In this document: positions 13,397-37,603 of the stretch, piece by piece | Position numbering within the stretch: the first letter of the stretch is position 1 | How the letters are laid out: every line of letters starts with the position of its first letter | Origin: Gammaproteobacteria bacterium | Lineage (GTDB): Bacteria > Pseudomonadota > Gammaproteobacteria > CBDBNL01 > JAAOII01 | DNA: 64,000 nucleotides | Reading direction: 5' to 3' | Assembly: GCA_965215225.1 (NCBI GenBank) | Contig: OZ244039.1 | Location: 687,771 to 751,770, forward strand | Notes under the pieces: model-generated | Seen by the model: the letters and a program-made list of their open reading frames with translations, nothing else | Databases searched by the model: none | Told to the model about the DNA's origin: nothing | Translations under genes and position numbers: made by a program

Positions 13397-13469
<73 letters not shown>

Positions 13470-19351: not shown

Positions 19352-20439
19352 AAGATATAAAACTATTAGGTTGTAATCATAGGACAGCATCTTTATCAGT
19401 GCGCGAACATATAGCCTTCGGTTCTGATCATATGGATAGCGCTATGAAATCTTTGCATAATCTTGAAGGTATAGATGAGGCATTGATTGTTTCTACTTGT
19501 AACCGAACGGAGATCTGTTATAGCGGGGTGGCTAATATGCAAAAGGTGGTTGAGTGGCTGGCAGATTTTCACGCTATTGATAGGGATCAACTGAGCGATT
19601 GCTTCTATTTTTATACAGCTAGAGAAGCGCTCTTTCACCTTATAAAAGTAGCCAGCGGGTTGGATTCTATGGTTCTTGGTGAGCCTCAGGTATTCGGTCA
19701 GATAAAGACTTCTTATAAGGAAGCGAAGGAAGGTGGCTATCTAGGTGGCTCCTTAGATGGGACACTGCAGCAGATTTTTGCTATCGCCAAAAAAGCGCGC
19801 AGCACTACTGGATTAGGCAACAAACCCTTAAGCCTAGCCTCAGTGGCGGTGCACCTTGCCGCCGACAAGTTGGGAGGGGGGCTAGTGAATGGCGCTGCCT
19901 TAATAGTAGGAGCAGGTCATAATGCATCATTAATTGCCCGCTATCTACACAAGCAGGGCAACCATTCTCTATTTATCGCCAATCGGACTCATGAAAAGGC
20001 AAAGAAGTTGGCCCAGTCCGTCAGTGGCAATGCCATAAGACTCATGGATATAGCAAAATATCTAGGGACGGTAAATATGGTATTTACTTCTACCAACTGT
20101 CCTACTTATATAATTACCAAAGATATGGTGGAAAGGGCGTTGATGAGTGAGTTGGTGAGTGATGAGAAGAAGAAATTCTTCATTGCCGATCTATCTGTGC
20201 CACGCGATGTTGAACCCTCGGTGCGCGAGTTAGCAAATGTTGCCTTTTTCATTATGGATGATATGCAAGGGCTTATTCAAAAGAATCAAGAGTATCGTGA
20301 TCAAGAGGCAAATAGGGCTATAAGGCTTATTGAAACTGAGGTAGGGTCGTTTGCTTCAAGAGGTTCAGAAAACCCTACCAGCTTGACAGGATTAGGAAAG
20401 ATGGCTAATGTTGGAACAGAAGATAAGAGAGAAATTTGA
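19348..20439 (+). CDS. hemA: Glutamyl-tRNA reductase
   Basis: [27 protein letters not shown] active-site region, NADPH-binding [13 protein letters not shown]; followed by prfA as in many Gammaproteobacteria. Confidence 0.85.
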
Positions 20440-21493
20440 TAGAGTCCGTAACCGAGTAAGTGAATTGGAAGGTCTGTTAACCAAACCAGAGATCCTAGCT
20501 GATCATACCAGGATGCGTGACTATAATAAGGAACTGGCAAGGCTGAAGAGGATGCTGCTTGTTTATGACCAATATCACGCGTTGGAACAACAACAGCACC
20601 AAACAACCGAACTTCTTAAGGATGAGGATGAAGATCTTAGAGAACTTGCCAGTCAAGAGCATGAAGACCTGACTAAGCGACTGAATGAAAAATATGATGA
20701 GCTTACTGAATTGTTACAGGAAAAGAATAGAATAGATGAAAGGAATGTTTTTATGGAGATACGACCAGCGGCTGGCGGCGATGAGTCGGCTATTTTTGCT
20801 GGCGATCTATTGCGTATGTATCAATACTATATTGAAAAGAAGAATTGGGATTTGGAAATAGTCTCCCTAAATCCAAGCGAACAGGGAGGATATAAGCTGG
20901 TGGTTATGGCTATTAAGGGCGAGAATGTTTTTGGTCACTTGAAATTTGAATCTGGTACTCATAGAGTTCAGCGAGTTCCTAAAACAGAGGCACAAGGCAG
21001 AGTCCATACCTCAACCTGCACTATAGCGGTTTTGCCAGAGGCCGCTGGTTCGGATGAGCTGGTTATTAATAAAAAGGATTTGCGCATCGATACTTTCCGT
21101 GCCAGTGGTGCTGGTGGTCAGCATGTCAATAAGACCGACTCGGCAATTCGCATCACTCATATACCCACTGGATTGGTGGTGGAATGTCAAGAACAAAGAT
21201 CCCAGCATCGCAATAAGGAAAAGGCAATGGAGTTCTTGCGCGCTCAGTTGTTGCAAAGAGAGGAAGAGAAAAGACAAGCAGAGGAGACTGAACTGAGGCG
21301 TAGTTTGGTTGGCAGGGGAGATAGGGCAGAGAAGATTCGCACCTATAATTTTTCTCAAAACAGGGTAACAGATCATCGTTTGCCCATCACGCTTTATAGT
21401 TTGGGGGATCTGATGTTGGGCGATTTGGATATTATTATTAATCCACTGATGACAGAAGAGCGGGCCTTAGCAATAAAGGAGTCAGCCCAATGA
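20408..21493 (+). CDS. prfA: Peptide chain release factor 1
   Basis: [23 protein letters not shown] motif; RVQRVPKTE (PxT codon-recognition tripeptide, RF1-type). Confidence 0.9.
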
Positions 21494-21861
21494 AATCAAT
21501 GAAAAAAGGGCGGACAGGCTTAGGCTCCTTAGACGATTTTCTTGTCAATCTAAGAGTGCCACAACAAGAGGCAAGTGCTTCGCGTAAGAAGAAAGAAGCT
21601 CCTTTGACAGGTCCTTATTTGATGGACTATTGTAGGACTATGGACAGGTTAGAAAAACTATTTGTGAAAGCCTTGCCAAGCTATATGAGGCAAGAATTTA
21701 AATTAGCCAATTATAGGGAAGGTGAGCTGGTGGTTTTTTGTAGCAATGCAAATTATGCCAGTCATTTGAGGTATCATAGCGAAGAAATAATAGAGGTGTT
21801 GAGGAACCTGACCGAGTTTCACGACCTGATAAAGATTAAGGTTCGCCAAGGGGAAATATGA
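21490..21861 (+). CDS. Hypothetical protein, possibly DUF721/DciA-like
   Basis: 123 aa; C-terminal pattern ..[35 protein letters not shown] reminiscent of DUF721; family call weak. Confidence 0.4.
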
Positions 21862-22772
21862 TAAGACAGAAGACCTTAAGAGAGACTATCGACGCGGTAG
21901 GCATAGGATTGCATACAGGTAAAGAAATTAACCTTAGATTACTACCAGCGGCAGCCAATACTGGCATAGTATTTCGGCGGGTGGATAAAGAATCACCCGT
22001 GGAGATTAAAGCCCATGCACTCAATGTCCATCGCACAGTCCTGTCAACTGAGATTAGCAACGGGAAGGTTTCAATCTGCACCATCGAACATCTGGTATCT
22101 GCATTCGCTGGCTTGGGTATTGATAATGCTTATATTGAGGTGGATGATGCCGAGGTTCCTATAATGGATGGCAGTGCTTCTAATTTTATTTTCTTGCTTC
22201 AATCAGCAGGCACAGTGGAACAAGATGCCGCCAAAAAGTATATCCGTATTCTCAAACCTATAGTCTATGAAATAGATGACAAACGCGGCGAGTTCCATCC
22301 TTTTTTCGGTTATCGCATCAGTGTTGAGATTGACTTCCCCCATCCTTTTTTCAAACAAAAACAACTTAAGGAGGTGGTTGATTTCTCTACTACTTCTTTT
22401 GTGAAAATACTAAGCCGAGCCCGCACCTTTGGTTTTATGAAAGATGTTCGCGATCTACAGGCGAAGGACTTGGCGTTAGGGGGCAGCTTACAAAATGCCA
22501 TCTTATTGGATGATAAAGATATCATAAACAAAGAGGGCTTACGGCATCCTATGGAATTGGTCCTCCATAAGGTGTTGGACGCTATAGGCGATCTTTACCT
22601 TATAGGTCATCATATCATCGGCGAGTTTCGTGGCTATAAATCCGGTCACCACATTAATAACCGTCTCATCCGTAAGCTATTGGAAGATAAAGAGGCATTT
22701 AGGATTGAAGAATTTTCAAAATCGGAAGACCTGCCAATCAACTATCGCACTATGAATAAGGAGGTTGATTAA
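21858..22772 (+). CDS. lpxC: UDP-3-O-acyl-N-acetylglucosamine deacetylase
   Basis: [23 protein letters not shown]..., SRARTFGFMKDV, HKVLDAIGDLYLIGH, YKSGHHINN; collinear with E. coli LpxC. Confidence 0.9.
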   Translation: MIRQKTLRETIDAVGIGLHTGKEINLRLLPAAANTGIVFRRVDKESPVEIKAHALNVHRTVLSTEISNGKVSICTIEHLVSAFAGLGIDNAYIEVDDAEVPIMDGSASNFIFLLQSAGTVEQDAAKKYIRILKPIVYEIDDKRGEFHPFFGYRISVEIDFPHPFFKQKQLKEVVDFSTTSFVKILSRARTFGFMKDVRDLQAKDLALGGSLQNAILLDDKDIINKEGLRHPMELVLHKVLDAIGDLYLIGHHIIGEFRGYKSGHHINNRLIRKLLEDKEAFRIEEFSKSEDLPINYRTMNKEVD

Positions 22773-23208
22773 AAATGAGATTATGTTGTATCTTTGGATT
22801 AAGGCCTTCCATTTGATTTCGGTAGTGGTTTGGTTTGCGGGGTTGTTCTATCTCCCACGCCTGTTTGTCTATCATAGTGCTACTGAGGATGAGAATATGC
22901 AAAAGAGCTATGCGACTATGGAGAGGAGGCTCTATCGTATCATTATGAACCCTGCGGTTATGATGGTTTTTGTTCTCGGGTTTGTTCTTCTCTGGCTAAA
23001 TCCAGCAGTGGCTTATGGCGGTTGGTTTCACATTAAGCTGGTCTTGGTCTTGGCATTGCTGGTATATCATATTTTTTGCGGTAGGATAATGAGATCCTTT
23101 GCTGAAGGAGATAATACTAGGACAACTGGCTTCTATCGTGTTTTCAATGAGGTTCCAACGGTTTTCCTTATAGCTATTGTCGTGCTTGCTGTGGTCAAAC
23201 CCTTCTGA
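22765..23208 (+). CDS. hemJ: Protoporphyrinogen IX oxidase HemJ (CopD/UPF0093 family membrane protein)
   Basis: LYLWIKAFHLISVVVWFAGLFYLPRLFVYH ... FNEVPTVFLIAIVVLAVVKPF, near full-length match to HemJ family. Confidence 0.75.
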   Translation: MIKNEIMLYLWIKAFHLISVVVWFAGLFYLPRLFVYHSATEDENMQKSYATMERRLYRIIMNPAVMMVFVLGFVLLWLNPAVAYGGWFHIKLVLVLALLVYHIFCGRIMRSFAEGDNTRTTGFYRVFNEVPTVFLIAIVVLAVVKPF

Positions 23209-25640
23209 TGAGCGCTCAGGTCCTCGCTCGTATCTGGCGACCAAAGTCTTTCAAAGATATGGTTGGGCAAGAACATATCACGCGAACTCTGATGAATGCC
23301 TTAAGGTTAGAACGCTTCCATCACGCCTATCTTTTTTGTGGCACTCGTGGTGTCGGCAAGACGACCATTGCTCGTATCCTAGCCAAGAGTTTCTTTTGCC
23401 AACAAAGAAAAAACTCAGAGCCCTGTAATGCTTGTTCCTCCTGCCAAGCCATTGATGAGGGCAGCTATGCCGACCTGATAGAAGTGGATGCTGCCTCACG
23501 CACTAAGGTAGAAGATACTCGCGATCTGCTGAGCGACGCTCAGTTTGCCCCAACCGAGGGCAAGTATAAGATCTACTTGATTGATGAGGTGCATATGCTT
23601 TCTGGTCATAGTTTCAATGCCCTGTTGAAGACTCTTGAGGAGCCGCCGCCACATATTATCTTTCTCTTTGCCACCACTGAACCACAGAAGTTGCCTATGA
23701 CTATGATATCTCGTTGTCTAAGATTCAATCTGAAAATGATTACGGAACCAGTGATAGTAGTTAGGCTGCAAGAGATCTTAAAGGCAGAAAAAATCTCTTT
23801 TGAAGAGAGAGCAACTGAATTACTTGCTCATTATGCCCGCGGTAGTATGCGCGATGCGCTGAGTCTGGTTGATCAGGCTATAGCCTATTGTGAGAAAGAT
23901 ATTCTTTACGATAAGGTTGCCTCTATGCTGGGCACCGCTCAGTTATTAACTCCTGAGGAAGCAGTGACTCATTTAATTCATAATCATGTTGATGAGCTGT
24001 TGAAGGCTACTGCTGTGATGGAAGAAAATGGAGTGGATTTCAGTGAGTTTCTTGATAACTTAATGGCATTATTACAAGATATTGCGGTCTTACAGCTAAG
24101 AGATTCAAACTCTCAGTCGGAAGAAAAGAAGTCCTATGTGAAGGATTTAAGTCCAGAGGAGGTTCAGCTTTTCTATCAAATTGCTTTACTAACAAAAAAA
24201 GAATTGCCTTGGGCGCCTTCCCCCCGCCGCGCGGTAGATATGGGATTGCTAAGAATGCTCAGTATGCAACCCCTATTCGCTGGTGAGACCTTGATACCAG
24301 CTCGCGCTGGGGCAGCTGGGGAAGGACTATCCCATGAGGAGGAGCCTATGGGGGTGAATAAGCAACAGAAGATGGAACCCCTTGAAGACGAGAAGGATGA
24401 AAAAGATAAGAAGGATAGAAAGGATGGAAAAGATGAGAAAGATGAAAGAAATGAAAAAGATAAGAGCCCGAAAGAAGAACTAAAACCTGAGATAACAGAC
24501 TCGCCGCAAGAATCTACTGATCTGCTGAAAGGAGAAACTCCTATGGAAGAAACACAGAAAACTGAGAAGATAGAAGAGGCTAAGAAGGAAGATGAGGCGA
24601 TGAAAACAGCGGAAGGAGAGGGTAGCGAGAGGGAAGAGAATAAGGGAGAACAGGAGGAGGAGCAACTTAAGACAGAGATGAAAGAAGAGGCAAAAGAAGA
24701 GGCAAAAGAAGAAGATAAGAAAGAGGAGCAACTTAAGACGGAGATAAAAGAAGAAGCAAAAGAGGAAGATAAGAAAGAGGAACAACTTAAGGCAGAGATA
24801 AAAGAAGAAGCAAAGGAGGAAGAGAGTAGCGAGAAAGAAGAGGAAGAAGAGATAAAGGAAGATAAGAGGGAAGAACAACTTGGGATGGATATCAAGGAAG
24901 AAGAGAAGGAAGCAAAGGGGGAAGAAACCCAGACTCAAGAAGTTGGAGCAATTGAGGGGACAGAGCACAGCAAGGATAGGAAGGAAGCAAGGAAAGAAGA
25001 AGCAACCCAAGGTGAAGGATCTCTTATAGAAGAAGCGCAAAAAGAGGAGCAAGTGGAACAAGCTCAAAAGGTTACAGAGATTGGGGAGACGAGACAGCAA
25101 AGGGATATTGAGGAGGCAAGGAGAGAAGAAACAGCCGAAGCCGAAGAGTCTCCTATGGAAAAGAGACAAGAGGAGGAGCAAGCATCTAGTTCCGCTAGTA
25201 AAGACGCCACACAGGAAGACAAGCCTAGCTCCAATCAGTTAGAAGAGGCTGAAAAGGATTATACACAGCCTTATCACTGGGCTCAATTGGTTGAGAGTCT
25301 TGACCTGTCTGGTTTGCAGGCAAGTTTACTAAGTGATACCAGACTTGTGCATCAGCAAAAGGGGATGTGGCTTTTGCGCATCCCTGCTCATGTTCGTGTG
25401 AATCTAGAGGATAATAGTAGGGAGGCTATAGAACGGGCATTAACTCAGAGGTTGCGCCAATCCATAAAGTTAGATCTTGAGGTTGGTGCTGTTGATGACA
25501 CGCCTAGTATGTTAAGAAATGAACAGCGGCTCCAAATGGTTCGGCAATTAAGTGACAGTCCCTTAGTAAAGGATATAGTTCAGAACTATGATGGTGAATT
25601 GGATGAAGACTCAGTGAGGCAAAAAGATGCATCTCCCTAA
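23208..25640 (+). CDS. dnaX: DNA polymerase III subunits gamma/tau with ~330-aa internal acidic K/E/D low-complexity repeat insertion
   Basis: AAA+ clamp-loader N-terminus (GQEHITRTLMNALRLERFHHAYLFCGTRGVGKTT, Zn module CNACSSC, SRC). Tandem nucleotide repeats encoding EEQLKTE(I/M)KEEAKEE(D)KK about three times. Conserved tau C-terminal segment. Confidence 0.85.
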   Translation: MSAQVLARIWRPKSFKDMVGQEHITRTLMNALRLERFHHAYLFCGTRGVGKTTIARILAKSFFCQQRKNSEPCNACSSCQAIDEGSYADLIEVDAASRTKVEDTRDLLSDAQFAPTEGKYKIYLIDEVHMLSGHSFNALLKTLEEPPPHIIFLFATTEPQKLPMTMISRCLRFNLKMITEPVIVVRLQEILKAEKISFEERATELLAHYARGSMRDALSLVDQAIAYCEKDILYDKVASMLGTAQLLTPEEAVTHLIHNHVDELLKATAVMEENGVDFSEFLDNLMALLQDIAVLQLRDSNSQSEEKKSYVKDLSPEEVQLFYQIALLTKKELPWAPSPRRAVDMGLLRMLSMQPLFAGETLIPARAGAAGEGLSHEEEPMGVNKQQKMEPLEDEKDEKDKKDRKDGKDEKDERNEKDKSPKEELKPEITDSPQESTDLLKGETPMEETQKTEKIEEAKKEDEAMKTAEGEGSEREENKGEQEEEQLKTEMKEEAKEEAKEEDKKEEQLKTEIKEEAKEEDKKEEQLKAEIKEEAKEEESSEKEEEEEIKEDKREEQLGMDIKEEEKEAKGEETQTQEVGAIEGTEHSKDRKEARKEEATQGEGSLIEEAQKEEQVEQAQKVTEIGETRQQRDIEEARREETAEAEESPMEKRQEEEQASSSASKDATQEDKPSSNQLEEAEKDYTQPYHWAQLVESLDLSGLQASLLSDTRLVHQQKGMWLLRIPAHVRVNLEDNSREAIERALTQRLRQSIKLDLEVGAVDDTPSMLRNEQRLQMVRQLSDSPLVKDIVQNYDGELDEDSVRQKDASP

Positions 25641-25658
25641 ACTTGTTGGGTATTCTCA

Positions 25659-25958
25659 ATGGACTTAAAAGATATTCTTAAGCAAGCAGAAGGCTTTCAA
25701 AGTAAATTACGCGGCTTGGAAGAGGAGCTGACCGGGCTAGAGACAATTGGCGAGTCAGGTGGAGGCATGATAGAAGTCCGTTTGAACGGCAAGTATGAGG
25801 TGGTCTCCTTAGTCATCAGTGACCAAGCCCAAAAGGAAGACAAAGAAGTTCTAGCTGAACTAGTGATGGCTGCGATGAACAATGCAGTTGCCAAGATGCA
25901 TGAACTTCGTCAAAAGAAACAGGGGGCGGTGTTATTTGGCGGCTCTGATAATGTCTAA
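25659..25958 (+). CDS. ybaB: Nucleoid-associated protein YbaB/EbfC
   Basis: 99 aa, ..GESGGGMIEVRLNGKYEVVSLVISDQ.. family signature; canonical dnaX-ybaB-recR order. Confidence 0.85.
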   Translation: MDLKDILKQAEGFQSKLRGLEEELTGLETIGESGGGMIEVRLNGKYEVVSLVISDQAQKEDKEVLAELVMAAMNNAVAKMHELRQKKQGAVLFGGSDNV

Positions 25959-26571
25959 ATCGATTGACAGCTTAATTGAGAGCTTTATTGGCTTGCCAGG
26001 CATAGGAACAAGATCGGCACATAGGCTGGTCTTTTATCTGCTCGCCCATAACCGCTCACTAGGACGTTTGATTGCTAAGCACCTTGCCACTGCTATGGAT
26101 GATATCAGAGAATGCGCCCAGTGTCGTAACTTCACCGAGAAAGAAATATGTGATATCTGCTTAGATGAGGGGCGGGAGAAGAAGCTGTGTGTAGTGGAAC
26201 TGCCTATAGATATTCTCGCGATTGAACGCAGTGGCTGTTATAGAGGCTATTATTTTGTCTTGCATGGTCGCCTCTCTCCTATTGATGGCATAGGACCTAA
26301 GCAGCTTTTCATAAGCCAACTGGCTAATCTGGTGAGGGCTAATCACTATGAAGAGGTGATCATAGCAACTAATCTGACTGTTGAGGGCGAGGTGACTGCC
26401 CATTACATCAGCAAGTCTCTTCTTCCCTTTGATGTTCGCGTGACCCGCATAGCTCATGGTGTTCCTATGGGAGGGGAGCTGGAGTATGTAGATGGTGGCA
26501 CTCTGTCTCATGCCTTTACTGGTAGATCCTTATATCAAACAGATGGTGCTGAATCTAAAGCGGGACATTGA
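25951..26571 (+). CDS. recR: Recombination protein RecR
   Basis: HhH N-terminus LPGIGTRSAHRL; C4 zinc finger CAQCRNFTEKEICDIC; Toprim VVELPIDILAIERSG; start set at MSKSID (25951). Confidence 0.85.
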   Translation: MSKSIDSLIESFIGLPGIGTRSAHRLVFYLLAHNRSLGRLIAKHLATAMDDIRECAQCRNFTEKEICDICLDEGREKKLCVVELPIDILAIERSGCYRGYYFVLHGRLSPIDGIGPKQLFISQLANLVRANHYEEVIIATNLTVEGEVTAHYISKSLLPFDVRVTRIAHGVPMGGELEYVDGGTLSHAFTGRSLYQTDGAESKAGH

Positions 26572-27310
26572 AGGATTGCGGGCGGCAGGCAAGGCAACAG
26601 CACAGGTTTTAGAATTCATTGCCAATCACATTCGGCCGGGTATCAGCACAGCTCGGCTAAATGATCTGTGTCATGATTTCATCACAAACAAATTGAATGG
26701 GATTCCAGCCAGTCTAGGCTATCAAGGATTTAGTAAGTCAATATGCACTTCCATTAACAATGTGGTTTGCCATGGTATCCCAGCTGAAAACAAACTGCTT
26801 AGAGCTGGTGATATTATTAATGTAGATGTGGCAGTCATTTTGGACGGCTATTATGGCGATAGCAGCTGCACTTTTTTAGTAGGCAAGACCAACTCTTTTG
26901 CTCGCCGATTAGTTGCTGTATGTCAGCAGTGTCTTTATCATGGCATAAGAGAAGCACTGCCGGGGAAAAGGCTTGGAGATATAGGCGCAGCTATTCAAGC
27001 CAAGGCAGAGACAGAAGGCTTTTCAGTGGTGAAAGAATACTGCGGTCATGGAACGGGCAAGAAATATCATACAACTCCTTCAGTTTTGCATTATGGGGTT
27101 AGGGGGACTGGACCAGTCATTCGTCCAGGAATGTGCTTTACTATTGAGCCTATGATTAATGCCGGACGGGCAGAGACACGGGTTCTAGAAGACGGCTGGA
27201 CGGTGGTCACTCAAGACGGCAGCCTCTCTGCTCAATGGGAGCATACTGTCTTAGTGAGAGAAAAAGGCTGCGAGGTTCTAACCCAAAGAACTGCCGAACA
27301 GATTTGCTAG
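26543..27310 (+). CDS. map: Methionine aminopeptidase type I
   Basis: VVCHGIP, DVAVILDGYYGDSS, YCGHGTGKKYH, FTIEPMIN, SAQWEHTVLV metal-ligand motifs; start set at Met 26543. Confidence 0.85.
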   Translation: MVLNLKRDIEGLRAAGKATAQVLEFIANHIRPGISTARLNDLCHDFITNKLNGIPASLGYQGFSKSICTSINNVVCHGIPAENKLLRAGDIINVDVAVILDGYYGDSSCTFLVGKTNSFARRLVAVCQQCLYHGIREALPGKRLGDIGAAIQAKAETEGFSVVKEYCGHGTGKKYHTTPSVLHYGVRGTGPVIRPGMCFTIEPMINAGRAETRVLEDGWTVVTQDGSLSAQWEHTVLVREKGCEVLTQRTAEQIC

Positions 27311-27311
27311 T

Positions 27312-28763
27312 CTAGCCGCCTATCAGACTCTGAATCAATAGGTGAACAGCAACAGAAGCAAAGTAACCCAAAGCTATTACCGGCGCCCATTTGAGATGGT
27401 AAAAGAAAGTGTAGCTGCCACGCGCATGACCGAGAAGAGCCACTCCAGCCGCCGAGCCAGTTGCCAGCAGACTTCCTCCTATGCCTGCGGTTAGGGTTAC
27501 CAATAGCCATTGGCCATCATCCATCGCTGGATCCATCTGCAGAACGGCAAACATCACTGGAATATTGTCAAGAACAGCCGAGAAGAGCCCTATGAAAATA
27601 TTGGCGATGGTCGGACCAAACTCAGCATAGGTTGCTAAGGATAGGACTTCTAGATAACCAAGAAAACTCAACCCGCCTATACACATTACTATGCCATAAA
27701 AGAAGATGAGAGTGTCCCATTCGGCATGGGCTATGCGATTAAATATATCAAAGGGAACTATATTACCCATACGGACAAACTGGTCTGGGGTGACATGGGC
27801 GCGCTTGGCCTTTTGGGCGATAGAACGGGGAAGGGACATACGGAGGTAATAACCAAAGAATTGTAAATAGCTTAGCCCCATCATCATGCCTACCACTGCT
27901 GGCAGATTGAAAAGAGTGTGAAATAATACTGCGGTCACGATAGTTAAAAAGAAGAGAAAAATAATGGTAAAAGTTCCCCGTTTTAGTTCAATCTCGTCAT
28001 GAGTATGTTGCGGCTTTTCGACTGGTAAGAAGAACTGCATCACCATCGCCGGGATGACAAAGCTAACTAGAGATGGAATAAAAAGGTCAAAGAATTCGTA
28101 GAACGACAGGATCTCGGCTTGCCAAACCATAAGAGTAGTGATATCGCCAAAAGGGCTGAAAGCACCGCCGGCATTTGCCGCTATGACTATGTTGATACAA
28201 CTAAGAGCAACAAATTTCTTGTGGCTGCCTCCTACCGCGATGACCACACTTGCCATAAGCAAAGCAGTGGTAAGGTTATCGGCAAAAGGTGAGATGAAAA
28301 AGGCAAGCAGACCAGTTATCCAAAACAAACTCTTGAAACTGAGACTCTTCCCCACTAACCATTCCTTTAATTTGAGAAAGAGCCGCCTTTCGTCCATAGC
28401 ATTGATATAGGTCATGGCAACCAATAGAAATAGAAGTAGTTCGGCATATTCCAATAGGGTCCTTTCTAAGGATTCCAAAACTAGCGAAGACTTATCACTC
28501 CCCATATAAAGCACAGCAATAGAAGCCCAAATGATACCCGCACATAGTAAGACAGGTTTGGATTTGCGCATGCGGGTATATTCCTCCAGCATCACCAGGA
28601 TATAGGCTATGATGAATATGAAGACATTGATAATCGCAAGGGGATGGGTTGTCAGATTGAGAGGCGCTGCCGTCTCATCCGCAGCAAATACCAACCCAGC
28701 TTGCAAGCAAAGAAAAATGGCGATTAATAGTTTCAACATAGGTATTAATTTAATTTTACTCAT
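27312..28763 (-). CDS. NhaD/ArsB-superfamily ion transporter (probable NhaD-type Na+/H+ antiporter) with N-terminal signal peptide
   Basis: 483 aa, ~12 TM, two-repeat architecture and resemblance to NhaD. Confidence 0.55.
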   Translation of the reverse strand: MSKIKLIPMLKLLIAIFLCLQAGLVFAADETAAPLNLTTHPLAIINVFIFIIAYILVMLEEYTRMRKSKPVLLCAGIIWASIAVLYMGSDKSSLVLESLERTLLEYAELLLFLLVAMTYINAMDERRLFLKLKEWLVGKSLSFKSLFWITGLLAFFISPFADNLTTALLMASVVIAVGGSHKKFVALSCINIVIAANAGGAFSPFGDITTLMVWQAEILSFYEFFDLFIPSLVSFVIPAMVMQFFLPVEKPQHTHDEIELKRGTFTIIFLFFLTIVTAVLFHTLFNLPAVVGMMMGLSYLQFFGYYLRMSLPRSIAQKAKRAHVTPDQFVRMGNIVPFDIFNRIAHAEWDTLIFFYGIVMCIGGLSFLGYLEVLSLATYAEFGPTIANIFIGLFSAVLDNIPVMFAVLQMDPAMDDGQWLLVTLTAGIGGSLLATGSAAGVALLGHARGSYTFFYHLKWAPVIALGYFASVAVHLLIQSLIGG

Positions 28764-28855
28764 AAATACAAGCTATTGCATTTATGATTTGAACACAAGT
28801 AATGTATAGCCATAGAACTCTTTTTGTTCTACTATTAATCAGCTAGAGAGGGGGC

Positions 28856-30241
28856 TTAGCTAGGCCGGTTCAATTTGGCAATCAATAAAGTAAGGGCGCA
28901 AGATACTAAGGATGCCGCTAGAAAAGATTGCAACCACCCGCTGCCAAGAAAGTGAGGGATAAGAGGAGAGAAATCTGGCTTGGGCATAAATAGTATTCCA
29001 GCAGCAATCCCACCTACACATCCGAACAATGCGCTTGCCTCATTGATCCTTTTGTTGTAAAGACCATAGAAAAGCGGAAAAGCCATGCCAGCACAGAGCA
29101 TATCGGCTATCAGAAAGAGATAAAGGACACTATAGCCGGGGACGGCAACTAGAATAGCCAAAATGGTAAGGATTGAAGTCGCCCAACGGGATATCCTAAT
29201 GACCTTTGAGCTTGATTCAATATGAGAGTTGCGTTGCTGAAGTAGCGGCTGCAGAGGTTGAACTATCAAACCAGCAAGCGCATTAAGCAAAGAATCTAAA
29301 CTACTCATCACCAATAACACTGCCAGAATGAGAAGCAACAGGATGAGCCAAACGGGCGCCAAACTATTCACCAGCTCAAACATTGCAGTCTCTGGATGTC
29401 TAGGCGAAAGATCGCCAATTAAGAAACCGAAGCTACCAGCTAAGAAGATGAGAGGTATCATAGCAATACCAGCAATGAGAAAAGATACCCTAAGGGTCTT
29501 ATCGTTGCGACAAGCATAGGCTCTTTGCCATAGGCTCTGATTGAAAAGCTGAGCAGCTACTATCGCAATAATGAGTGTTAGAGCAAAAGTCCAGCCGGGC
29601 AAGTAGGCCGTTCTAAATGCCACTGCTGGCATCTCTTTCGTCTGTAATAGAATAAAGAGGAAAACCAGAATGAGTAGCGGCACTAGTATGCTGAGTTGAA
29701 TCTTATCTGTGAAAACAACTGCTTGAAACCCTCCACGATTAGTATAGGCCCAGGTGGCAATGGCAATGATCGGCACAGTGATGCTTAAAGGAATCTGAGC
29801 TAAAACACTCACCGCCTTTCCTATGGCAGTCAATTCTGCGGTGAGGAATATAAACATATAGAAAAGACAAATAACTAAAACAGCACTTGCCATCTTCCTC
29901 CCATAGCGTTCTTGCGCCCATTGGGGCAGACTGGTGGTCTGTGGCATGAGCCTTAACAACCTCACTCCCAGCACCGCAATCAGAATAAGCGGCAACGCTT
30001 GCCCCAATGCATAGCCTCCCAAAGCAATAATACCAAATTGGATGGTTGTCTCTACTGGTGTAAAGAGTATCCAAACTCCAGCAGCAGAAGCCACAATAGT
30101 AGCGATTGAGGCAAGAGTATTCAGTGACCTCTTAGGAAAAATAAACTCCAGCCCCGCTCCCTCTCTTTTAGCCATAAACACCCCAGCACCAGCCATCAAC
30201 CCAGCAACAACAACCACAGCAAAAAGATAAAAGATACTCAT
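28856..30241 (-). CDS. Sodium:solute symporter family (SSS) transporter
   Basis: RGGFQAVVFTDKIQ SSS signature, 13-14 TM. Confidence 0.65.
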   Translation of the reverse strand: MSIFYLFAVVVVAGLMAGAGVFMAKREGAGLEFIFPKRSLNTLASIATIVASAAGVWILFTPVETTIQFGIIALGGYALGQALPLILIAVLGVRLLRLMPQTTSLPQWAQERYGRKMASAVLVICLFYMFIFLTAELTAIGKAVSVLAQIPLSITVPIIAIATWAYTNRGGFQAVVFTDKIQLSILVPLLILVFLFILLQTKEMPAVAFRTAYLPGWTFALTLIIAIVAAQLFNQSLWQRAYACRNDKTLRVSFLIAGIAMIPLIFLAGSFGFLIGDLSPRHPETAMFELVNSLAPVWLILLLLILAVLLVMSSLDSLLNALAGLIVQPLQPLLQQRNSHIESSSKVIRISRWATSILTILAILVAVPGYSVLYLFLIADMLCAGMAFPLFYGLYNKRINEASALFGCVGGIAAGILFMPKPDFSPLIPHFLGSGWLQSFLAASLVSCALTLLIAKLNRPS

Positions 30242-30345
30242 ATCGGGTTTAGTATATCCTATTGATTTGATCTAATAGGTTGTTTAGCTTGTAGTTTGTA
30301 AGATATCCAACAAACTCTATTCACATTTGATCTAATAGTTTTTGG

Positions 30346-30560
30346 GAATTATATCCAATCTTCCACAAAAGAGAATATTATGAAAAAAGAGCCCCGAAGT
30401 GAAGGAGTCATAAAAAGCGAGACCATTTACGGTCAGACCTTCCGCTAATAGAGGAGGCGAAGTTGACCGCTTTACAGATTTTCTTTTACAGACGCTCATC
30501 AAAAAGAGAGTGAACTAAGAGGATTTATGGATTTGTGGAAGATACTATGTAATTCCCTAG
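30346..30560 (+). mobile_element. MITE-like ~220-bp repeat element, copy B (ORF disrupted)
   Basis: Inverted copy of 16676-16905; same terminal inverted repeats; immediately abuts minisatellite. Confidence 0.6.
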
Positions 30561-31860
30561 TTTTTTTTAGCTTGTAGTTTGTGTAGTTTGTATAGGAGTT
30601 TGTCTTTCCCTTTCTTCACAGCCGCTACCTCTTATTCCTTTCTATTGCCAAGTTGGTATAGGGTTTTGTTTTCCCCTTTCTTTACAGACGCCACCTCTTA
30701 TTCCTTTCTATTGTCAAGTTGGTATAGGATTTTGTCTTTTCCCTTTCTTCGCAGCCGCCGCATTCCTTTATATTGTTAAGTTTGTATAGTTTTTGTCTTT
30801 TCCCTTTCTTCGCAGCCGCCGCATTCCTTTATATTGCTAAGTTTGTATAGGATTTTGTCTGTCCCTTTCTTCGCAGGTATTCATCTACAAGAGTTTACTT
30901 AGTTTGTAATTTGTATAGTTGTATAGGTTCTTGTCTTTCCCTTTCTTCGCAGGTATTCATCTACAAGAGTTTATTTAGTTTGTAATTTGTATAGTTGTAT
31001 AGGTTTTTGTCTTCCCCTTTCTTCGCAGCCGCCTCATTCCTTTATATTGCCAAGTTTGTATAGTTTTTGTCTTTTCCCTTTCTTCGCAGGTATTCATCTA
31101 CAAGAGTTTATTTAGTTTGTAATTTGTATCGGATTTTGTCTTTCCCTTTCTTCGCAGGTATTCATCTACAAGAGTTTATTTAGTTTGTAATTTGTATCGG
31201 ATTTTGTCTTTCCCTTTCTTCGCAGGTATTCATCTACAAGAGTTTATTTAGTTTGTAATTTGTATCGAATTTTGTCTTCTCCCTTTTCTTCACAGCCGCC
31301 CCCTCTCATTCCTTTCTATTGCCAAGTTTGTATAGTTTGTGTGGGGTTTTGTCTTTCCCCTCTTTTTTTCACAGGTATTTATCTATAAGAGTTTATTTAG
31401 TTTGTAGTTTGTATCGAATTTTGTCTTCCCTCTTTTTTTTCACAGCCGCCCCCTCTCATTCGTTTTTATTGCCAAGTTTGTATAGGTTTTTGTTTGTCCC
31501 TTTCTTCGCAGCCGCCGCATTCCTTTATATTGCCAAGTTTGTATAGGTTTTTGTCTTTCCCCTTTCTTCGCAGCCGCCGCATTCCTTTATATTGTTAAGT
31601 TTGTATAGTTTTTGTCTTTTCCCTTTCTTCGCAGCCGCCGCATTCCTTTATATTGCTAAGTTTGTATAGGATTTTGTCTGTCCCTTTCTTCGCAGGTATT
31701 CATCTACAAGAGTTTATTTTGTTTGTAATTTGTATAGTTGTATAGGTTTTTGTCTGTCCCTTTCTTTACAGTCGCCGCATTCCTTTATATTGCCAAGTTT
31801 GTATAGGATTTTGTCTTTCCCCTTCTTCACAGGTATTGATATATAAGAGCGTGAGTTTAC
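30560..31860. repeat. Complex non-coding minisatellite, ~20 units of two interleaved unit types (~61 bp ..tttgtctttccctttcttcgcagccgccgcattcctttatattgccaagtttgtatag.. and ~80 bp ..ttcgcaggtattcatctacaagagtttatttagtttgtaatttgtat..)
   Basis: Direct reading; pyrimidine-rich strand bias; only short spurious ORFs. Confidence 0.85.
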
Positions 31861-32051
31861 ATCCTAAGTGCAATACCTCAAGATTATAATTTGGCAACTG
31901 GTGTGGCACTAGTGGTGGGAATTTGCTTGATGTAAATTCATTCATAAATGATATAATACTCGTATAGCGAAAACTAAAAAGTAAGTCAATTTTTACAAGT
32001 TAATCAAAACTTTGATGGTAAAATTACTTTCATCAATATTATAAGGAGCTT

Positions 32052-33359
32052 ATGATAAGATATTTATTCAGACTGCTTGCCTCTTTCTTTACTAGGGCGT
32101 TTGCCTTTTTTATCAGTGTGGTAGTCTTTCTTATCAGGCAGTTCGTACTCTTTATCAGGCAGCTTGTTTTCTTTGTCAAGCAGCTCGTTTTTTTCTTGAT
32201 CAGGCAGCTCAAGTCTTTATACAGGCAACTCGTTTTCTTTATCAAGCAGCTAGTCTCTTTCTTGATCAGGCAGCTCAACTTTCTCGTTACCAAGGTGCCC
32301 AAGTCGCTCGTGCCTTTCATTGCTGAGAAATTTGGGCCATTTTTGTTAGAGCGGTCTCTCCCTTTCTTTATTGGTGCTGGTATTACAGCGGGGACTACCA
32401 TTCCTTATTATGAGTTTCGTGATGATTCAAAAGTACTCACAAAAATTGAAGCATTGCTTAGGAAAATTGACACTATTTCCGGCACCGTTAACAGGACTGA
32501 AGACACTGTTGAAGGAATATTGGCAAACATTACTTCTACTTTAAACATCACTGCCGAGAATCAGATAGTCATTAGAAGTATATCGGCAAACATTAGCTCT
32601 ATTTCCGACATCACTGCCAAGAATGAGATAGCCATTAGAAATATATCGGTAAAGATTGACTCTATTTCCAACACCACTGCCAGGAACGAGAGAGCTATTG
32701 GAGATATATCGGCAGACATTAGTTCTGTATCGAATTATGTTGTCAATAATATTAATAAGACATTAGCTTTCGCTATTCATACTAAAACTGTAGAGATAGA
32801 TCAAATGAATCAAACTATAAATCAAATCATGAGTCAGGCAAAGGATCAAGGGAAAAAAATGTATAGAAGCAATCAAGAAAAATACCAAGAGTATATAGAC
32901 GCTTTACTTAAAAGACAAGGACAATTAGAAAAAGAAGGGAAGGAACTTAGGCAAAAAAGAGATGAGTTTTTGAAAGACCCTTTAAAACCCCTCAATATGT
33001 ATAATAATGATCCTGATGAAATAGCTTCATCGTCTAACTCTATCGAAGAGTTTAATAGAGCCCAAGATAAGTTTATTGTTTACATAACGGATCCAAAGAC
33101 GAAAAACCTTCCTAAGGCAATTCCCCTGATAGTTAATAATAGGGCAGTGCTACTTAATAGGGCGGTGCCAGTTAGACGTGAAATGGGAAAAATGTCATCT
33201 TCAAGCAGCAGTTGCCCATCAAGAGGGCAAGGGATTTTTCTCGGGGAGCTTCTTGATCCTAAAACGAGGAACCCTTTTAGCATCTATAACAGCAATCAGC
33301 CTTTCTTTCTCAATAATGGGATAGGACTAAATAATAGGTGCTTTCTTTATCTCCCTTAG
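32052..33359 (+). CDS. Hypothetical repeat-containing protein
   Basis: 435-aa ORF immediately downstream of the minisatellite. N-terminal 21-nt (7-aa, (I/V)(R/K)QLVFF) tandem repeats. Internal 60-nt/20-aa repeats (I..NISSISDITAKNEIAIRNIS). K/E-rich predicted coiled coil. Coding status not certain. Confidence 0.4.
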   Translation: MIRYLFRLLASFFTRAFAFFISVVVFLIRQFVLFIRQLVFFVKQLVFFLIRQLKSLYRQLVFFIKQLVSFLIRQLNFLVTKVPKSLVPFIAEKFGPFLLERSLPFFIGAGITAGTTIPYYEFRDDSKVLTKIEALLRKIDTISGTVNRTEDTVEGILANITSTLNITAENQIVIRSISANISSISDITAKNEIAIRNISVKIDSISNTTARNERAIGDISADISSVSNYVVNNINKTLAFAIHTKTVEIDQMNQTINQIMSQAKDQGKKMYRSNQEKYQEYIDALLKRQGQLEKEGKELRQKRDEFLKDPLKPLNMYNNDPDEIASSSNSIEEFNRAQDKFIVYITDPKTKNLPKAIPLIVNNRAVLLNRAVPVRREMGKMSSSSSSCPSRGQGIFLGELLDPKTRNPFSIYNSNQPFFLNNGIGLNNRCFLYLP

Positions 33360-33969
33360 GAAGTCCGAGGATCTATTTACTACTCTAATATCCACTTTAA
33401 GGGTTTATTTTTATTCAAAACAAGATGTATCTATGTTTTTTCAAAGATCATCAGGCGGCATTAAGTTATATGTATCTATAACAGAGATCCATCTCCCATA
33501 GTAATCATAATGGAATGTCGTCCGGGGTGGTGGCGATTTGTTTAGTCTTTTTGCCCCCTTTTGTTTATTCAGCCTTATTATTTGGACTGATCCGCGGGCA
33601 GCTTTTTATTTGGATCTAAGTGCAATGGCTTTGTCCTTCACTATGACAATACCTGCCGCCTTGAGCAGAGATATTGTCATTAGTCCGTAAGAAGGGCTTG
33701 ACCGCACCAATAATACTCAAAAAAACAATCATTGTAAATATTGCTACCATTAGGTGCGAGCAGCAAGAGAACCAACCGTCATTTCATAAGGAAACGAAAC
33801 GGTATGACCCTAATGGAAGCAATTAATCATTAGAAGTCGTCGCCTTGTCTGTTGTCATTCACAAAGGCAATAATTCCCTCTTTTTAAATGCAAATTCGTG
33901 ACTAAGAAACTTGTAAAGAAATGTTTTTTTATTGCTAATTTTAGTTTCTTATGATATAATGGCTTCATT

Positions 33970-34612
33970 ATGAGCATGTTTACGGCAGGATCTTTAGGAT
34001 TAATAGGTGGATTGATTCTTCCACTTGTTAAGATCATAGTTAATTCCTGTAATAACCATAGAGAACGCATACATAAGGAGCGAATGAAAGCATTTGAAAT
34101 AGAAGAACTGAAACAGAAAGTGGCTCTTGCAAAAATACAAGGAAATAGCGAACTAAAATCTCAAATGATTGAAGCTAACAAAGAAGTAAATAAGAGTGAA
34201 CAATAAGCAAATAAAGGCATCTGCAATAGAAGGGAATAGCGAACTAAAATCTCAAATGATTGAAGCTAACAAAGAAGCAAATAAAAATGAAACAGAAGAC
34301 AGAAAGTCGGCAAGGACGCATGATGCAGCTAAATATATTTCAACTTTATCTAAGGAGTCGCCTAAATTCGCGTGGTACCTATTTACTATAGTAGATACTC
34401 TTAGAGGATTAGTAAGGCCAATAGTTACTTTTTGGGTGGTTGGTCTTTTTACAGTATTTATACTCTGCCCTGATGAGGAAACGTCAAATTTGTTGTTGAC
34501 TAATGGTAAGGACATTCAGGACATTAAAAATGCACTAATTGGAGTGTTGTTTGCCTGCATAGCATTTTGGTTTGGGGATAAAGTTGCCGAAGGTATTGAA
34601 AAAAAGAAATAG
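33970..34612 (+). pseudogene. Small membrane protein gene split by a 91-bp tandem duplication (track ORFs 33970..34206 and 34196..34612)
   Basis: GNSELKSQMIEANKE(V/A)NK duplicated (copies start 34141 and 34232, 91 bp apart = frameshift); N-terminal TM + two C-terminal TM helices. Confidence 0.45.
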
Positions 34613-34617
34613 AACCG

Positions 34618-35106
34618 GCCATAACTGTGAGCATAACGGCGTTTTTGATTGCGGAGAAAGCGATGCAAGTCATCGCCCGCTTTTTGATTTTTGCGAATCC
34701 AACGATAAAGTGTGACAAATGAGATGCAACAGCTCCCTTCAGAACTCCACCGCCCTGCTATCTGCTCGGGACTCCAGCTTTGTTTCAACGACGCTTGTGC
34801 CTGCGCTTTCACCTCATCGGTTAGCACAGAATAACGAGAACGCTGTTGTTGCCTTGCTTCACTTATTTGCTGAACTTGCTGATGACGATAGGCTTGCTTC
34901 CCGTTATTGCGCTGAGTTTCTCGGCTAATAGTAGAAGGACAAGGATCTAAAAGCGCCGAACTATAAAGTGCATGCTCTTTCCTCATTTTTTCTATTATTG
35001 CTCGTTATTTCTTTGAAATATGGGCATAATGCTTTTTACACGAAACCTCTTTGTTGATTTTCTTGGATGGGATTATATAATCCCGTCAAAGAGGTGTTGC
35101 ACTTAT
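34618..35106 (-). mobile_element. IS30-family element, truncated copy (outer terminal IR + HTH N-terminal ~125 aa of transposase only)
   Basis: ORF 34516..34986(-): ..PSTISRETQRNNGK..WSPEQIAGRW.. IS30 N-terminal signature; 5' region homologous (inverted) to 36167-36320. Confidence 0.65.
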
Positions 35107-35122
35107 GAAGTAAATTCACGAA

Positions 35123-36166
35123 TTGGGACAAAAAGGAGTCATGTTGGAAAAGGGAATGATAGTGGTGGTGGACACCACTGCCATCGAGCTAATCCGTTCT
35201 CGGCTGGAGGATAGCTGCAAAAGGAAGCCCACCCAGGATCCCGAAGCAGACTACAATGGCAAGGTCGGGCGCAAAGCAACTGATGGTTACAAGCTCCATA
35301 CCAATGCGGATGCCGAGGGATGGATCAGGAAGATCGCCGACATGCCCAGCAGCGTCCACATCCCTCAGATGCTCCCAGAACGGATGAGCGGCAATGAACA
35401 AAACGCCAACAACGGATACGCTGGTCAAAAAATTGCCTCACTGCTTGGCGACAAGAGACGCTTTCTTCATCGTCCTTACCGCGATATTCCATTCACCGGA
35501 CGGCAACACCGAGAAAATGCAGCCCGACAAAAAACGCGCAATCTAGTGAAACTCACCTTCGCCCATCTCAAACGCCATTTTGGCTTAACAAAGACCCGTT
35601 ACCTCGGACAAGCACGGAACTACGCATCCGCGCTTCTCACTACTATTGCCTCCAATCTCAAACGAGCCGCACCTAAGACTAAATACTCAATCACCCTCTT
35701 ATTTGTATTGTTAAGTTTTAATGTTGGTTCTACTGAGTATAAGCAGTTATGGTATGGGCCGTTTTGTGTTCGGGATGACTTGAAATTCTGTATAGATATT
35801 TCTTTAAATCCTTATGCAAATTTAGATATTAAGAATTTTGATGGCATAGAGGTTCGGACTGTTCCTTCTCGTCTTTTTAGTGGCGAGCGTCATCTTCGTG
35901 GTGGGCGTCATCCTCCTAATTTGATTTTGCGTAGTCTGAATGGTAATGGCGCGGCCATATTTGTTAAGGATGCGTTTAATGATTTTACTTATCTTACTTA
36001 TAGGACGGGTTTTGATTTTTGCTTTTTTGCTCGGCGTGTTATTGGTGAGGATTTAGAGATTGAGATTGAGGGAGCTCGTTATATTTTAGTTATTTCCAGT
36101 GACACTTCTTGGTCGAATTTTGCTTTGAGTTGTATAGATTATATTGAGTTGAAAAGTGAGTCATGA
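35123..36166 (+). pseudogene. IS4/IS5-family (DDE_Tnp_1) transposase fragment fused to unrelated low-complexity tail
   Basis: VVVDTTAIE (first catalytic D region) ... RNLVKLTFAHLKRHFGLTKTRYLGQARNYASALLTTIASNLKRA (classic IS4/IS5 C-terminal signature); higher GC than surroundings; residues after ~195 lack homology. Confidence 0.55.
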
Positions 36167-37460
36167 ATTCCCACTATAAGTGCAACGCCTCTTTTTTTTA
36201 GAAGGGATTATACAATCCCATCCAAGAAAACCAAAAGAGAGGTCTCGTGTAAAAAGCATTATTTTGTCTTTCAAAAAAGAACGAGCAATGATAGAAAAAT
36301 GAGGAGAGAAGGAAAGAGCATGCGCTCTATAGCTCGGCGCCTAGATCCTTGTTCTTCTACTATTAGCCAAGAGATGCAGCCCAATAGCGGGAAGCGCGGC
36401 GCCCGTCTTTGCAAGCGCATCAAAGAAGCCAAGCCAGACATTTAGAACCTTCTTACTATGAGGTTTTAACTGATCGGATGAAGGAAAAAGCCCGCACTTT
36501 ATTAGAGCGCCAATAGAGTCCAGTCGGCTGGCGTTATGCAGGGGTGTCCTCTTCTAAAAATACGCTGTATTGGTGGATAGAAAAGAATCGCAAAGCAGGT
36601 GGTGACCTACATCCTGCGATGCAATCAAGGACGCCGTCATGCTCTATGGACGAAAAGCCTATTCGCAGTGCATTCCAGGGCGGGTCGGCATAGAAAAGCG
36701 TCTAGCCATAGTCGAAGAACGAAAGCGTCTAGGCGACTGGGAAGCCGATACCATGCGGCCATCATTGCCCACCATTAAGGCTTCCTGGTGACTCTAGTGG
36801 ATCGAAAACTTCTCGGGTCGGCATAGAAAATCATCCAGCCATAGTGGAAAAACGAAAACGACTAGGCGATTGGGAAGCCGATACCACGCGCCCATCATTG
36901 CCCACCATTAAGACTTCTTGGTGACTCTGGTGGATCGAACTTCTCGTCTCGGCATAGAAAAGCGTCCAGCCATAGTCGAAGAACGAAAGCGTCTAGGCGA
37001 CTGGGAAGCCGATACCAACCATCAAGGATTCTTAGTGACCCTGGTCGAACGAACTTCCCGTACTATTCTGATAGCCAAGGTGCCTCGCAAAGAAAAAGAC
37101 TTAGTCGCAAAAGCTATCCTTGCTATGCTCCAACTCATCGCAGACTATGCCTATACCATCTGACAATGGCTGTGAGTTCAGCGACCATTAGAATATCGCT
37201 GAGAAACTCGATTGCGACACCTACTTCGCCACTCCTTATCGCAGCTGGGGAAGAGGTGCCAATGAAAATGCCAATGGACTCATTCGCCAGTAGCTGCCAA
37301 AAAGAATGTCCATCCGAAATTTATCCAACCAAATAATAACACAAATCACCAACCGATTGAACCACCGACCACGAAAGTGCCTCGGATTCAAAACACTCGC
37401 TGAGGTGTTCCAACAACTCAGCGAGGCAGACTATGATTTAGCAACAGGTGTTGCACTTTA
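36167..37460 (+). mobile_element. IS30-family element, degenerate copy (transposase with multiple frameshifts/stops and ~120-bp internal tandem repeats at 36640-37000); IR-like ends ataagtgcaac / gttgcactttaa
   Basis: Fragments MRSIARRLDPCSSTISQEMQPNSGK.. (HTH), ..KRKRLGDWEADT.., ..FATPYRSWGRGANENANGLIRQ.., ..LNHRPRKCLGFKTLAEVF.. in different frames. Confidence 0.7.
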
Positions 37461-37570
37461 AATGTTAATCCACCATATCCGTATGTGGATAACTTAGCAA
37501 AGCATCTTAATGTAATTGTCAATTGATTCTGTCCAGCATATTAATCGGGATCGAATATGCTTTGAATCGC

Positions 37571-37603
37571 GGGGGGGGGGGGGGGGGGGGGGGGCTTTTT
37601 TTT
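37571..37603 (+). repeat. G24 homopolymer followed by T8 at the boundary between IS cluster and CRISPR array
   Basis: Direct count of 24 consecutive G (37571-37594), c, then 8 T. Confidence 0.9.

Follow-up and report, generated by a model that had tools for sequence, protein, structure and literature searches.

A long array of tandem repeats lies between two divergent genes in a 64,000-nt stretch of gammaproteobacterial DNA (GenBank assembly GCA_965215225.1, contig OZ244039.1, positions 687,771 to 751,770), which we refer to as “the window”; coordinates are those of the window unless another contig is named. To the left of the array is a sodium:solute symporter gene (28856..30241, − strand; Pfam SSF, 9.6e-20; NCBIfam sss), with transcription directed away from the repeats. 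To the right is an orphan, repeat-rich open reading frame (ORF) of 435 aa (32052..33359, + strand). The repeats between them are of two interleaved types, A and B, and their number and order differ in a sister strain. As discussed below, these features point to a compound minisatellite, i.e., a variable-number tandem repeat (VNTR), that is probably specific to one lineage.

Structure and origin of the array

Tandem Repeats Finder (TRF), which an earlier note on this DNA had proposed as the means of defining the repeat units, reports overlapping tandem arrays with periods of 61, 66, 68, 76 and 136 nt across 30585-31849, with scores of 298-612. Cutting the sequence at the recurring ...TTGTCT[Y-rich]RCAG ends resolves the region into 19 head-to-tail units (30561-31832), with full units ranging from 61 to 79 nt. 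The order of units across the array is 0-AAAABBABBBABAAAABA, i.e., a truncated first unit, “unit 0”, followed by 18 complete units (30622..31832, + strand) that are delimited by TRF, segmentation, core matches and nhmmer. All units have in common a pyrimidine-rich 36-nt core, GTTTGTATAGGNTTTTGTCTTTCCCTTTCTTCGCAG, that ends in CAG, while the sequence preceding the core sets the type. The 11 A units start with CCGCCGCATTCCTTTATATTGCCAA and are 61-67 nt long, with a single one of 79 nt; the seven B units start with GTATTCATCTACAAGAGTTTATTTAGTTTGTAATTTGTAT(AGTT) and are 68-76 nt long. There are only two inter-core segments in the array, an A tail and a B tail, each recurring 7-11 times. The array ends with a partial B start of 17 nt (GTATTGATATATAAGAG; 31833..31849, + strand), beyond which the sequence is unique, and the same junction is found in the sister strain.

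A 23-nt version of the core, TTTGTCTNTCCCTTTCTTCRCAG, occurs 11 times at ≤3 mismatches, always on the + strand and always within 30599-31832; the corresponding number in shuffles of the window is 0.00. A 19-mer, TATTGCCAAGTTTGTATAG, is well conserved among A units, and the motif AGTTTGTAT(A) is retained in every unit, including the old, diverged ones. Units 15-16 (31574-31695) repeat units 3-4 (30755-30876) with 100% identity, units 8 and 9 have one and the same sequence, and identical interior blocks span 122-136 nt. The edge units, by contrast, have diverged to 70-88% identity. The + strand of the array is 68% pyrimidine, with a G+C content of 37%. The earlier note had described a non-coding tandem array with a pyrimidine skew on the + strand and a particular block order, and all of this holds. 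Its unit sizes (“~61 and ~80”) and number (“about 20”) were close to the measured values. Its extent, 30560-31860, requires correction on the left side: position 30560 corresponds to the right end of an inserted element, with the array continuing beyond it in degenerate form.

In agreement with the earlier note, the array contains no credible ORF. None is frame-conserved, and unit lengths are mostly not multiples of 3. The ORFs that can be drawn are inconsistent among units and strains. Those of 66 and 75 aa on the + strand are a composition effect of a purine-poor strand. Two other candidates were rejected. Mini-ORFs on the − strand of A units (ATG...MRRLRRKGK..TAA) have no consistent frame, length or stop across units or strains, and their AAGGA abuts the ATG. 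A 132-aa “gene” across the array of the sister strain exists only through a T run that is 1 nt shorter; in the window, the same frame stops after 16 codons.

On its left side, the array runs in degenerate form to ~30257, ~16 nt from the symporter start codon. The outermost unit, “unit −1”, is a degenerate, B-like unit (30257..30325, + strand; CTATTGATTTGATCTAATAGGTTGTTTAGCTTGTAGTTTGTAAG...) that consists of symporter-proximal native DNA and has a weak nhmmer match at 30271-30300. Unit 0 follows, and is split by a 213-bp MITE (a miniature transposable element with inverted repeats; 30344..30556, no strand assigned). The MITE is recognizable by its inverted termini, its target-site duplication and the presence of two copies in the window: its termini form imperfect inverted repeats of ~20 bp (GGGAATTATAT...ATCTTCC) and its target-site duplication is 9 bp long (ATAGTTTTT/CTAGTTTTT, 8/9 match). 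The second copy (16676-16892), on the opposite strand, is 87% identical, with a perfect 9-bp duplication, TTGAATTTA (9/9). The copies are 213-217 bp long, and both are common to the window and the sister strain. Excision of the MITE and one duplication in silico joins 30326-30343 to 30566-30621, with CATTTGATCTAATAGTTTTT running directly into TTTAGCTTGTAGTTTGTGTAGTTTGTATAGG..., and yields a complete, diverged B-like unit. Together with segmentation, this reconstruction defines the left part of unit 0, which is B-like (30326..30343, + strand), and its right part, which ends in ...CTTCACAG (30557..30621, + strand). The MITE is thus a later insertion into one unit of a single-locus array.

The likely source of the B unit is the DNA in which the array sits. 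The B consensus aligns locally to 30242-30342 of the window with a score of 31 (shuffle p=0.002). Its first 30-40 nt also align to symporter-proximal DNA in two related genomes, L002 (p=0.014) and L003 (p=0.016), and the matches in all three genomes have the same position relative to the symporter start codon. Because the start of B aligns to syntenic, symporter-proximal DNA in three genomes, we infer that native intergenic DNA was the seed of the array.

The array in related genomes

The sister strain is represented by a 1.8-Mb contig (L001) that was found by an exact-protein look-up with YbaB. Its housekeeping left flank (15824-31225 in the window) is 96.4-96.5% identical to the window, and its right island (32580-36279) is 99.0% identical. 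The greater similarity of the island than of the flank suggests a recent exchange or sweep of the island. Between the same flanks, the sister strain has an array of 13 units, which includes three copies of a 198-nt higher-order repeat, AAB, followed by ABA; array length in the two strains is 0.9-1.3 kb. The edges are orthologous, with 97-100% identity between units 0-2 of the window and units 0-2 of the sister strain. Units 10-12 of the window are 97.5-100% identical to units 9-11 of the sister strain. By contrast, interior units have moved: unit 7 of the window equals unit 5 of the sister strain, and unit 17 equals unit 6, but is located near the right end.

The earlier note had predicted that unit number would vary among strains, and had suggested a comparison among isolates and a role as a recombination hotspot. 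In the one comparison made, with the sister strain, the two alleles do differ, with 19 units in the window and 13 in the sister strain, in a rearranged order. The array also behaves as a recombination substrate would, with interior units duplicated or moved and edges orthologous. Unequal recombination and slippage classically leave diverged edges around an interior that is homogenized and turning over. Since the array has both features, one of these processes is the likely cause. The outcome of turnover is seen in the comparison of the two strains; slippage or unequal recombination would have produced it.

In the left flank, the dnaX gene (23208-25640) has a long K/E/D-rich insert with in-frame repeats of 27/54 bp, and the length of its product is 810 aa in the window, 865 aa in L001 and 728 aa in L002.

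Beyond these two strains, no counterpart of the array was found. In L002, a sister species whose symporter is 89% identical, the array is absent upstream of the symporter gene, and small membrane-protein ORFs are found there instead. In L003, whose symporter is 88% identical, the array is also absent, and its position is occupied by cas12a. In the more distant L005 (57%) and L008 (53%), the symporter gene is preceded by ordinary genes, without any tandem repeat. Neither a collection of species-representative genomes (genome_contigs) nor a metagenomic collection (metagenome_contigs) contains a match to the core motif. The A-unit 19-mer has three matches in metagenome_contigs, all of them single, non-tandem chance matches to one unrelated coding sequence. 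Profile searches with nhmmer, covering the 64-kb window and L001-L011, found no copy of A or B beyond the array, and a search of genome_contigs with the symporter protein found no relative. Because the array is absent from sister species, distant relatives and sequence collections, it appears to be young and confined to one species-level lineage. The junction beside the symporter gene takes four forms in four related genomes: array plus island, small membrane-protein ORFs, cas12a or ordinary genes.

The right edge of the array leads into this island. An IS30-family transposase gene has left a relic of its 3′ end (31881..31910, + strand), which begins 32 nt past the end of the array. This relic matches 25/30 nt of 37428-37457, the end of an IS30-like ORF, and none of 3000 shuffles reaches the score of this match. 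The whole of 30.2-37.6 kb is lower in G+C than its surroundings, with 36-39% over 30-35 kb compared to 42-49% in the preceding 20 kb. Within it are the orphan ORF, another, small ORF that matches a PHROG, and fragments of IS30 and IS5 insertion sequences (IS). This low-G+C stretch, with its orphan ORF, IS fragments and IS30 relic, suggests that the array is located at a repeatedly rebuilt junction. The IS debris extends over 34516-37461, with IS30-family fragments at 34516-34986 (− strand) and 36599-37461, and an IS5-family fragment at 35123-35660. Inside the IS30 part, a 133-bp segment is repeated 2.6 times (36681-37017). Just after the IS30 fragments is a 24-G homopolymer followed by T8 (37571-37594), ~30 nt before the first repeat of a CRISPR array; the homopolymer could be a slippage-prone tract in the flank or leader of that array. 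The CRISPR array itself (37627-63929) is very large and runs off the right end of the window. In it, a 36-nt repeat, GTTGTGATTTGCGGGCGCTCTCCGATGAGTTAAAAT, occurs 399 times with perfect conservation, at a period of 66 and separated by spacers of ~30 nt; the window contains no cas gene. The sizes of repeat and spacers and the GTTGTG...AAAAT ends recall type II-C systems, to which this array may belong. An anti-repeat or tracrRNA relation between the minisatellite and the CRISPR array was considered and rejected, with no similarity between them.

The ORF at 32052 begins with an ATG 219 nt after the last full unit, preceded by a strong Shine-Dalgarno sequence, AAGGAG. It has in-frame repeats of 21 and 63 bp, of which the 21-bp repeats are FLIRQLV-like. 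Its only relatives in the database are itself and the allele of the sister strain (464 aa). The two alleles are 75% identical, compared to 96-99% for the surroundings. The stretch that is hypervariable between strains runs from the array through approximately the first 530 nt of this ORF, with 99% identity from 32580 on. A candidate promoter for the ORF can be read from the sequence at 31927..31957 (+ strand): TTGATG, a spacer of 19 nt, and an extended −10 element, TGATATAAT, at 31949-31957. The consensus promoter scan omits this site because of its 19-nt spacer. The candidate −10 element is in unique sequence ~100 nt beyond the array, is identical in the sister strain, and is equally distant from the gene in both strains.

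Searches for a function and alternative explanations

There are several functions that an array of this kind might have, and searches for them were negative. A consensus scan of both strands of the array detected no sigma-70-type site, which led us to reject an array of promoters. Similarly, there are no inverted repeats within units, so a hairpin or REP-like element was rejected. For the 198-nt A-A-B block, folding on the two strands is no stronger than that of shuffles (z=0.27 and 1.40), and the array has no Rfam match, whether at the gathering threshold or at E≤10. The trinucleotide GGA is not more frequent than expected from composition, with 29 observed and 26 ± 4 expected. RNAs of the CsrB/RsmZ sponge type have many GGA motifs in the loops of hairpins, as well as a promoter and a terminator of their own. 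An RNA of this type was rejected on three grounds: GGA is not enriched, there is no structure beyond that of shuffles, and no promoter was found. In scans of Pfam, NCBIfam and PHROG, the neighboring ORFs are transporters, IS fragments and orphans, and cumulative GC skew rises steadily through the region, with no turn. The earlier note had listed protein-binding iterons among the candidate functions. Iterons are short (~17-22 bp) direct repeats beside a replication initiator gene, at a skew switch. The units described here do not fit this definition: they are 61-76 nt long, with no adjacent replication gene, no turn in GC skew, and no copy outside the array within the window or L001-L011.

The explanation that we favor, and consider probable, is that the array is a lineage-specific, non-coding, compound minisatellite evolving by unequal recombination, most likely without a sequence-specific function. 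The units are arranged head to tail at a non-coding site between divergent genes, with sizes inside the range of roughly 10-150 bp that is typical of bacterial VNTRs, and their number varies between strains amid conserved flanks (96.4-99% identity). To form the array, native intergenic DNA lying immediately upstream of the symporter gene would have been amplified in tandem. The array is located at a junction presumably remodeled by mobile elements, i.e., the MITE, the IS30 relic and the island of IS and phage debris. Replication slippage and unequal homologous recombination would act through the homology of the 36-nt core that A and B share. As a consequence, interior units would be continually duplicated, deleted and reshuffled, while the older edge units diverge. 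In functional terms, the array is most likely a fast-evolving spacer, with the divergent genes on its two sides each retaining proximal control regions of their own.

There are four points that weigh against this explanation. The lack of function is inferred from negative computational evidence only, and strain variation is seen between two alleles. Although contraction should come about easily, the array is still long in both strains, which is compatible with some selective maintenance. Lastly, the explanation does not account for the strong strand asymmetry of the array (68% pyrimidine) or for the conserved 19-mer of the A units.

Alternatively, the array could be a copy-number-variable, cis-regulatory “rheostat” or contingency locus, in which unit number tunes transcription of the 32052 ORF or the symporter gene through DNA curvature, upstream-element effects or insulation of divergent promoters. 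The position of the array within a divergent intergenic region is consistent with this possibility, as are the hypervariability and in-frame repeats of the 32052 ORF and the derivation of B units from symporter-proximal DNA. The earlier note had proposed that the array serves as a promoter region for the gene at 32052, but no promoter-like site is found in the array, and the candidate −35 and extended −10 elements (31927-31957) lie beyond its end at 31849. Because this candidate promoter is in unique sequence and is identical in the sister strain, we conclude that the array is unlikely to be the promoter of the ORF; the fixed distance from promoter to gene in both strains also argues against tuning by unit number. 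On the other side, the symporter-nearest part of the array (units −1 and 0, with the MITE) is common to both strains, and the variable interior is at least 380 nt from the start codon. The variable interior is therefore unlikely to be the core promoter of the symporter gene. Moreover, known phase-variable promoter repeats have units of 1-7 nt placed within or between promoter elements, unlike the arrangement seen here; in contingency loci, the tract may also be in the reading frame, with expression switched by the number of units. We consider a rheostat unlikely.

A function in protein binding or as an RNA is less probable still. The units could be iteron-like sites for a DNA-binding or nucleoid protein that recognizes GTTTGTATAGG or TATTGCCAAGTTTGTATAG, with a role in titration, silencing, or replication/partition. 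The retention of AGTTTGTAT(A) in all units would be expected for such sites. Nonetheless, this motif has no dyad symmetry, the adjacent genes include none for replication, partition or a regulator, and cumulative GC skew does not turn at this point. In addition, neither unit is found elsewhere in the window or at related loci, and sister species do without the array, making this explanation very improbable. Alternatively, the array could be transcribed into a long, unstructured RNA, either purine-rich from the − strand or pyrimidine-rich from the + strand, that acts as a CsrA/Hfq-type sponge or comprises tandem small RNAs. The − strand of every unit has AAGGA, AAGGG and A-R-N-like runs, and a terminator-like hairpin on the − strand (GACCGTAAATGGTC, 30434-30421) lies between the array and the symporter gene. 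This hairpin belongs to the MITE, however, and is also present in its other copy. No promoter-like site reads into the array, and the lack of structure, of GGA enrichment and of an Rfam match on either strand argues in the same direction, such that we give an RNA function very little credence.

A different kind of explanation concerns the ancestry of the array, which might be a decayed and re-amplified CRISPR-Cas12a array. The − strand of each B unit has ...AAATAAACTCTTGTAGAT, and this stretch resembles the 3′ end of a Cas12a repeat. The likeness was considered worth testing because, after it had been noticed, cas12a was found at this junction in L003, a Logan assembly of a sister species. There, cas12a (3-2570 of the contig, − strand) is divergent from the symporter gene, at exactly the position of the window’s minisatellite and island; the gene encodes REC1, REC2 and PI domains and is cut short where the contig ends. 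Among full-length Cas12a proteins in the database, the closest (1325 aa) is 58% identical to that of L003, and is encoded on a contig from a related genome, L004, whose canonical 36-nt repeats (GTCTAGGCGTGATATAAAATTTCTACTATTGTAGAT) are on the strand opposite cas12a, in agreement with the orientation here. The B unit matches the 3′ end of the L004 repeat at 11/12 nt (shuffle p=0.026), a value that is lost on correction for the eight comparisons made. Other observations also argue against a Cas12a ancestry. The handle hairpin that closes a type V-A repeat is UCUAC-N3-5-GUAGAU. The window has no TCTAC-N3-7-GTAGAT, the 5′ stem arm UCUAC being absent, and the array has only two types of “spacer”, each of them repeated. 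tblastn with the L003 Cas12a detected no cas12a remnant in the window or the sister strain, and scans of Pfam, NCBIfam and PHROG found no cas gene among the ORFs neighboring the array. The native counterpart of the B segment is ATC--CAAGAG in L002 and ATAAAAGAG in L003, neither of which is a Cas12a handle. In three genomes, symporter-proximal DNA gives the B segment a better alignment, so that native DNA explains it better. The resemblance to the handle is weak, probably due to chance, and descent from a Cas12a array seems extremely unlikely. As to a CRISPR array of any type, this identity was rejected given the lack of unique spacers, of a repeat hairpin and of any cas gene in the window.

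The Cas12a locus of L004 has features of its own. Over 10001-23934, cas12a is directly followed by >140 repeats, with no cas1, cas2 or cas4 between the gene and the array, and a 400-bp insert (15545-15939) interrupts the repeats.

Lastly, the array could be an assembly artifact, i.e., the expansion of one or two units, as the earlier note had cautioned. The identical interior blocks of 122-136 nt are of a kind that can confuse assemblers. However, arrays are present on two independent megabase contigs (2.3 Mb and 1.8 Mb), the diverged edge units are orthologous between them, the interiors differ, and many units have private variants. Misassembly is thus the most improbable of the explanations considered here.

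Relation to known repeats and significance

The closest analogs of the array that we identified are VNTR-141 and VNTR-105 of Wolbachia. These are intergenic, non-coding repeats, like the present array in a small bacterial genome, with compound periods that contain sub-repeats, and some units have internal deletions (PMC3287509). Alleles of VNTR-141 reach ~1.2 kb, with strain-specific copy numbers; the Wolbachia VNTRs have been ascribed to slipped-strand mispairing, with no function demonstrated (PMC3287509). Within a Wolbachia array, the periods share 98-99% identity, and they include hairpins of 23 bp (PMC3287509). The likeness to the array described here is one of size, of compound periods, and of copy-number change amid conserved flanks. 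The differences are that the units here lack hairpins, are of two interleaved types (61 and 68-76 nt), and have edges of 70-88% identity. Nor are their sequences similar to those of the Wolbachia repeats.

Other repeats share some of these features. Like the MIRU-VNTRs (mycobacterial interspersed repetitive units), the array is located between genes and is built of tandem units in the 40-100 bp range, in numbers that differ from strain to strain. MIRUs are a dispersed family of ~40 loci, usually with few copies at each, and are often located inside operons, where they overlap small ORFs. In contrast, the A and B units have 19 copies at a single locus in the DNA examined (the 64-kb window and L001-L011). 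A periodicity of 61-76 nt, a conserved 36-nt segment and a short likeness to the Cas12a handle recall CRISPR arrays, from which the present array differs in having no unique spacers, no repeat hairpin and no likeness to the 399-repeat array 6 kb downstream. In Porphyromonas gingivalis, a minisatellite is reported to be located inside a MITE and to move with it (PMC4596501). The two cases are alike in the physical association of a bacterial minisatellite with a MITE, and differ in that here a fixed, single-locus array had the MITE inserted into one of its units at a later time. A further array was observed on L004 (1177-1511), where purine-rich intergenic tandem repeats upstream of dapF have periods of 33, 67 and 100 nt and ~5-9 copies. 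It has the same strand-skewed style with two sub-units, in a sequence that is unrelated to that of the A and B units.

By these comparisons, the array is a known type of element, a bacterial intergenic VNTR of unusually large size, and gives no evidence of a new biological mechanism. A more far-reaching possibility, that the array is a maintained, copy-number-variable element in which unit number tunes the 32052 ORF, or that it gives rise to a strand-biased, unstructured RNA that titrates an RNA- or DNA-binding protein, strikes us as quite improbable, as does a variant of this idea in which it descends from a lost Cas12a locus. If true, either of the first two would mean that a small-genome bacterium has a minisatellite-scale contingency locus.

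On the explanation that we favor, i.e., a compound minisatellite most likely without a sequence-specific function, the array is informative in several respects. Its position singles out a junction beside the symporter gene at which the genome is hypervariable. Because the MITE insertion is common to both strains, it would predate the strain split, and would therefore set a minimum age for the first unit. Since unit order and number differ at ~96.5% nucleotide identity of the flank, the array may serve as a very high-resolution strain marker for this uncultured lineage. More generally, it would be a clean example of a compound minisatellite arising from native, promoter-proximal DNA, with edges that are old and an interior that is turning over.

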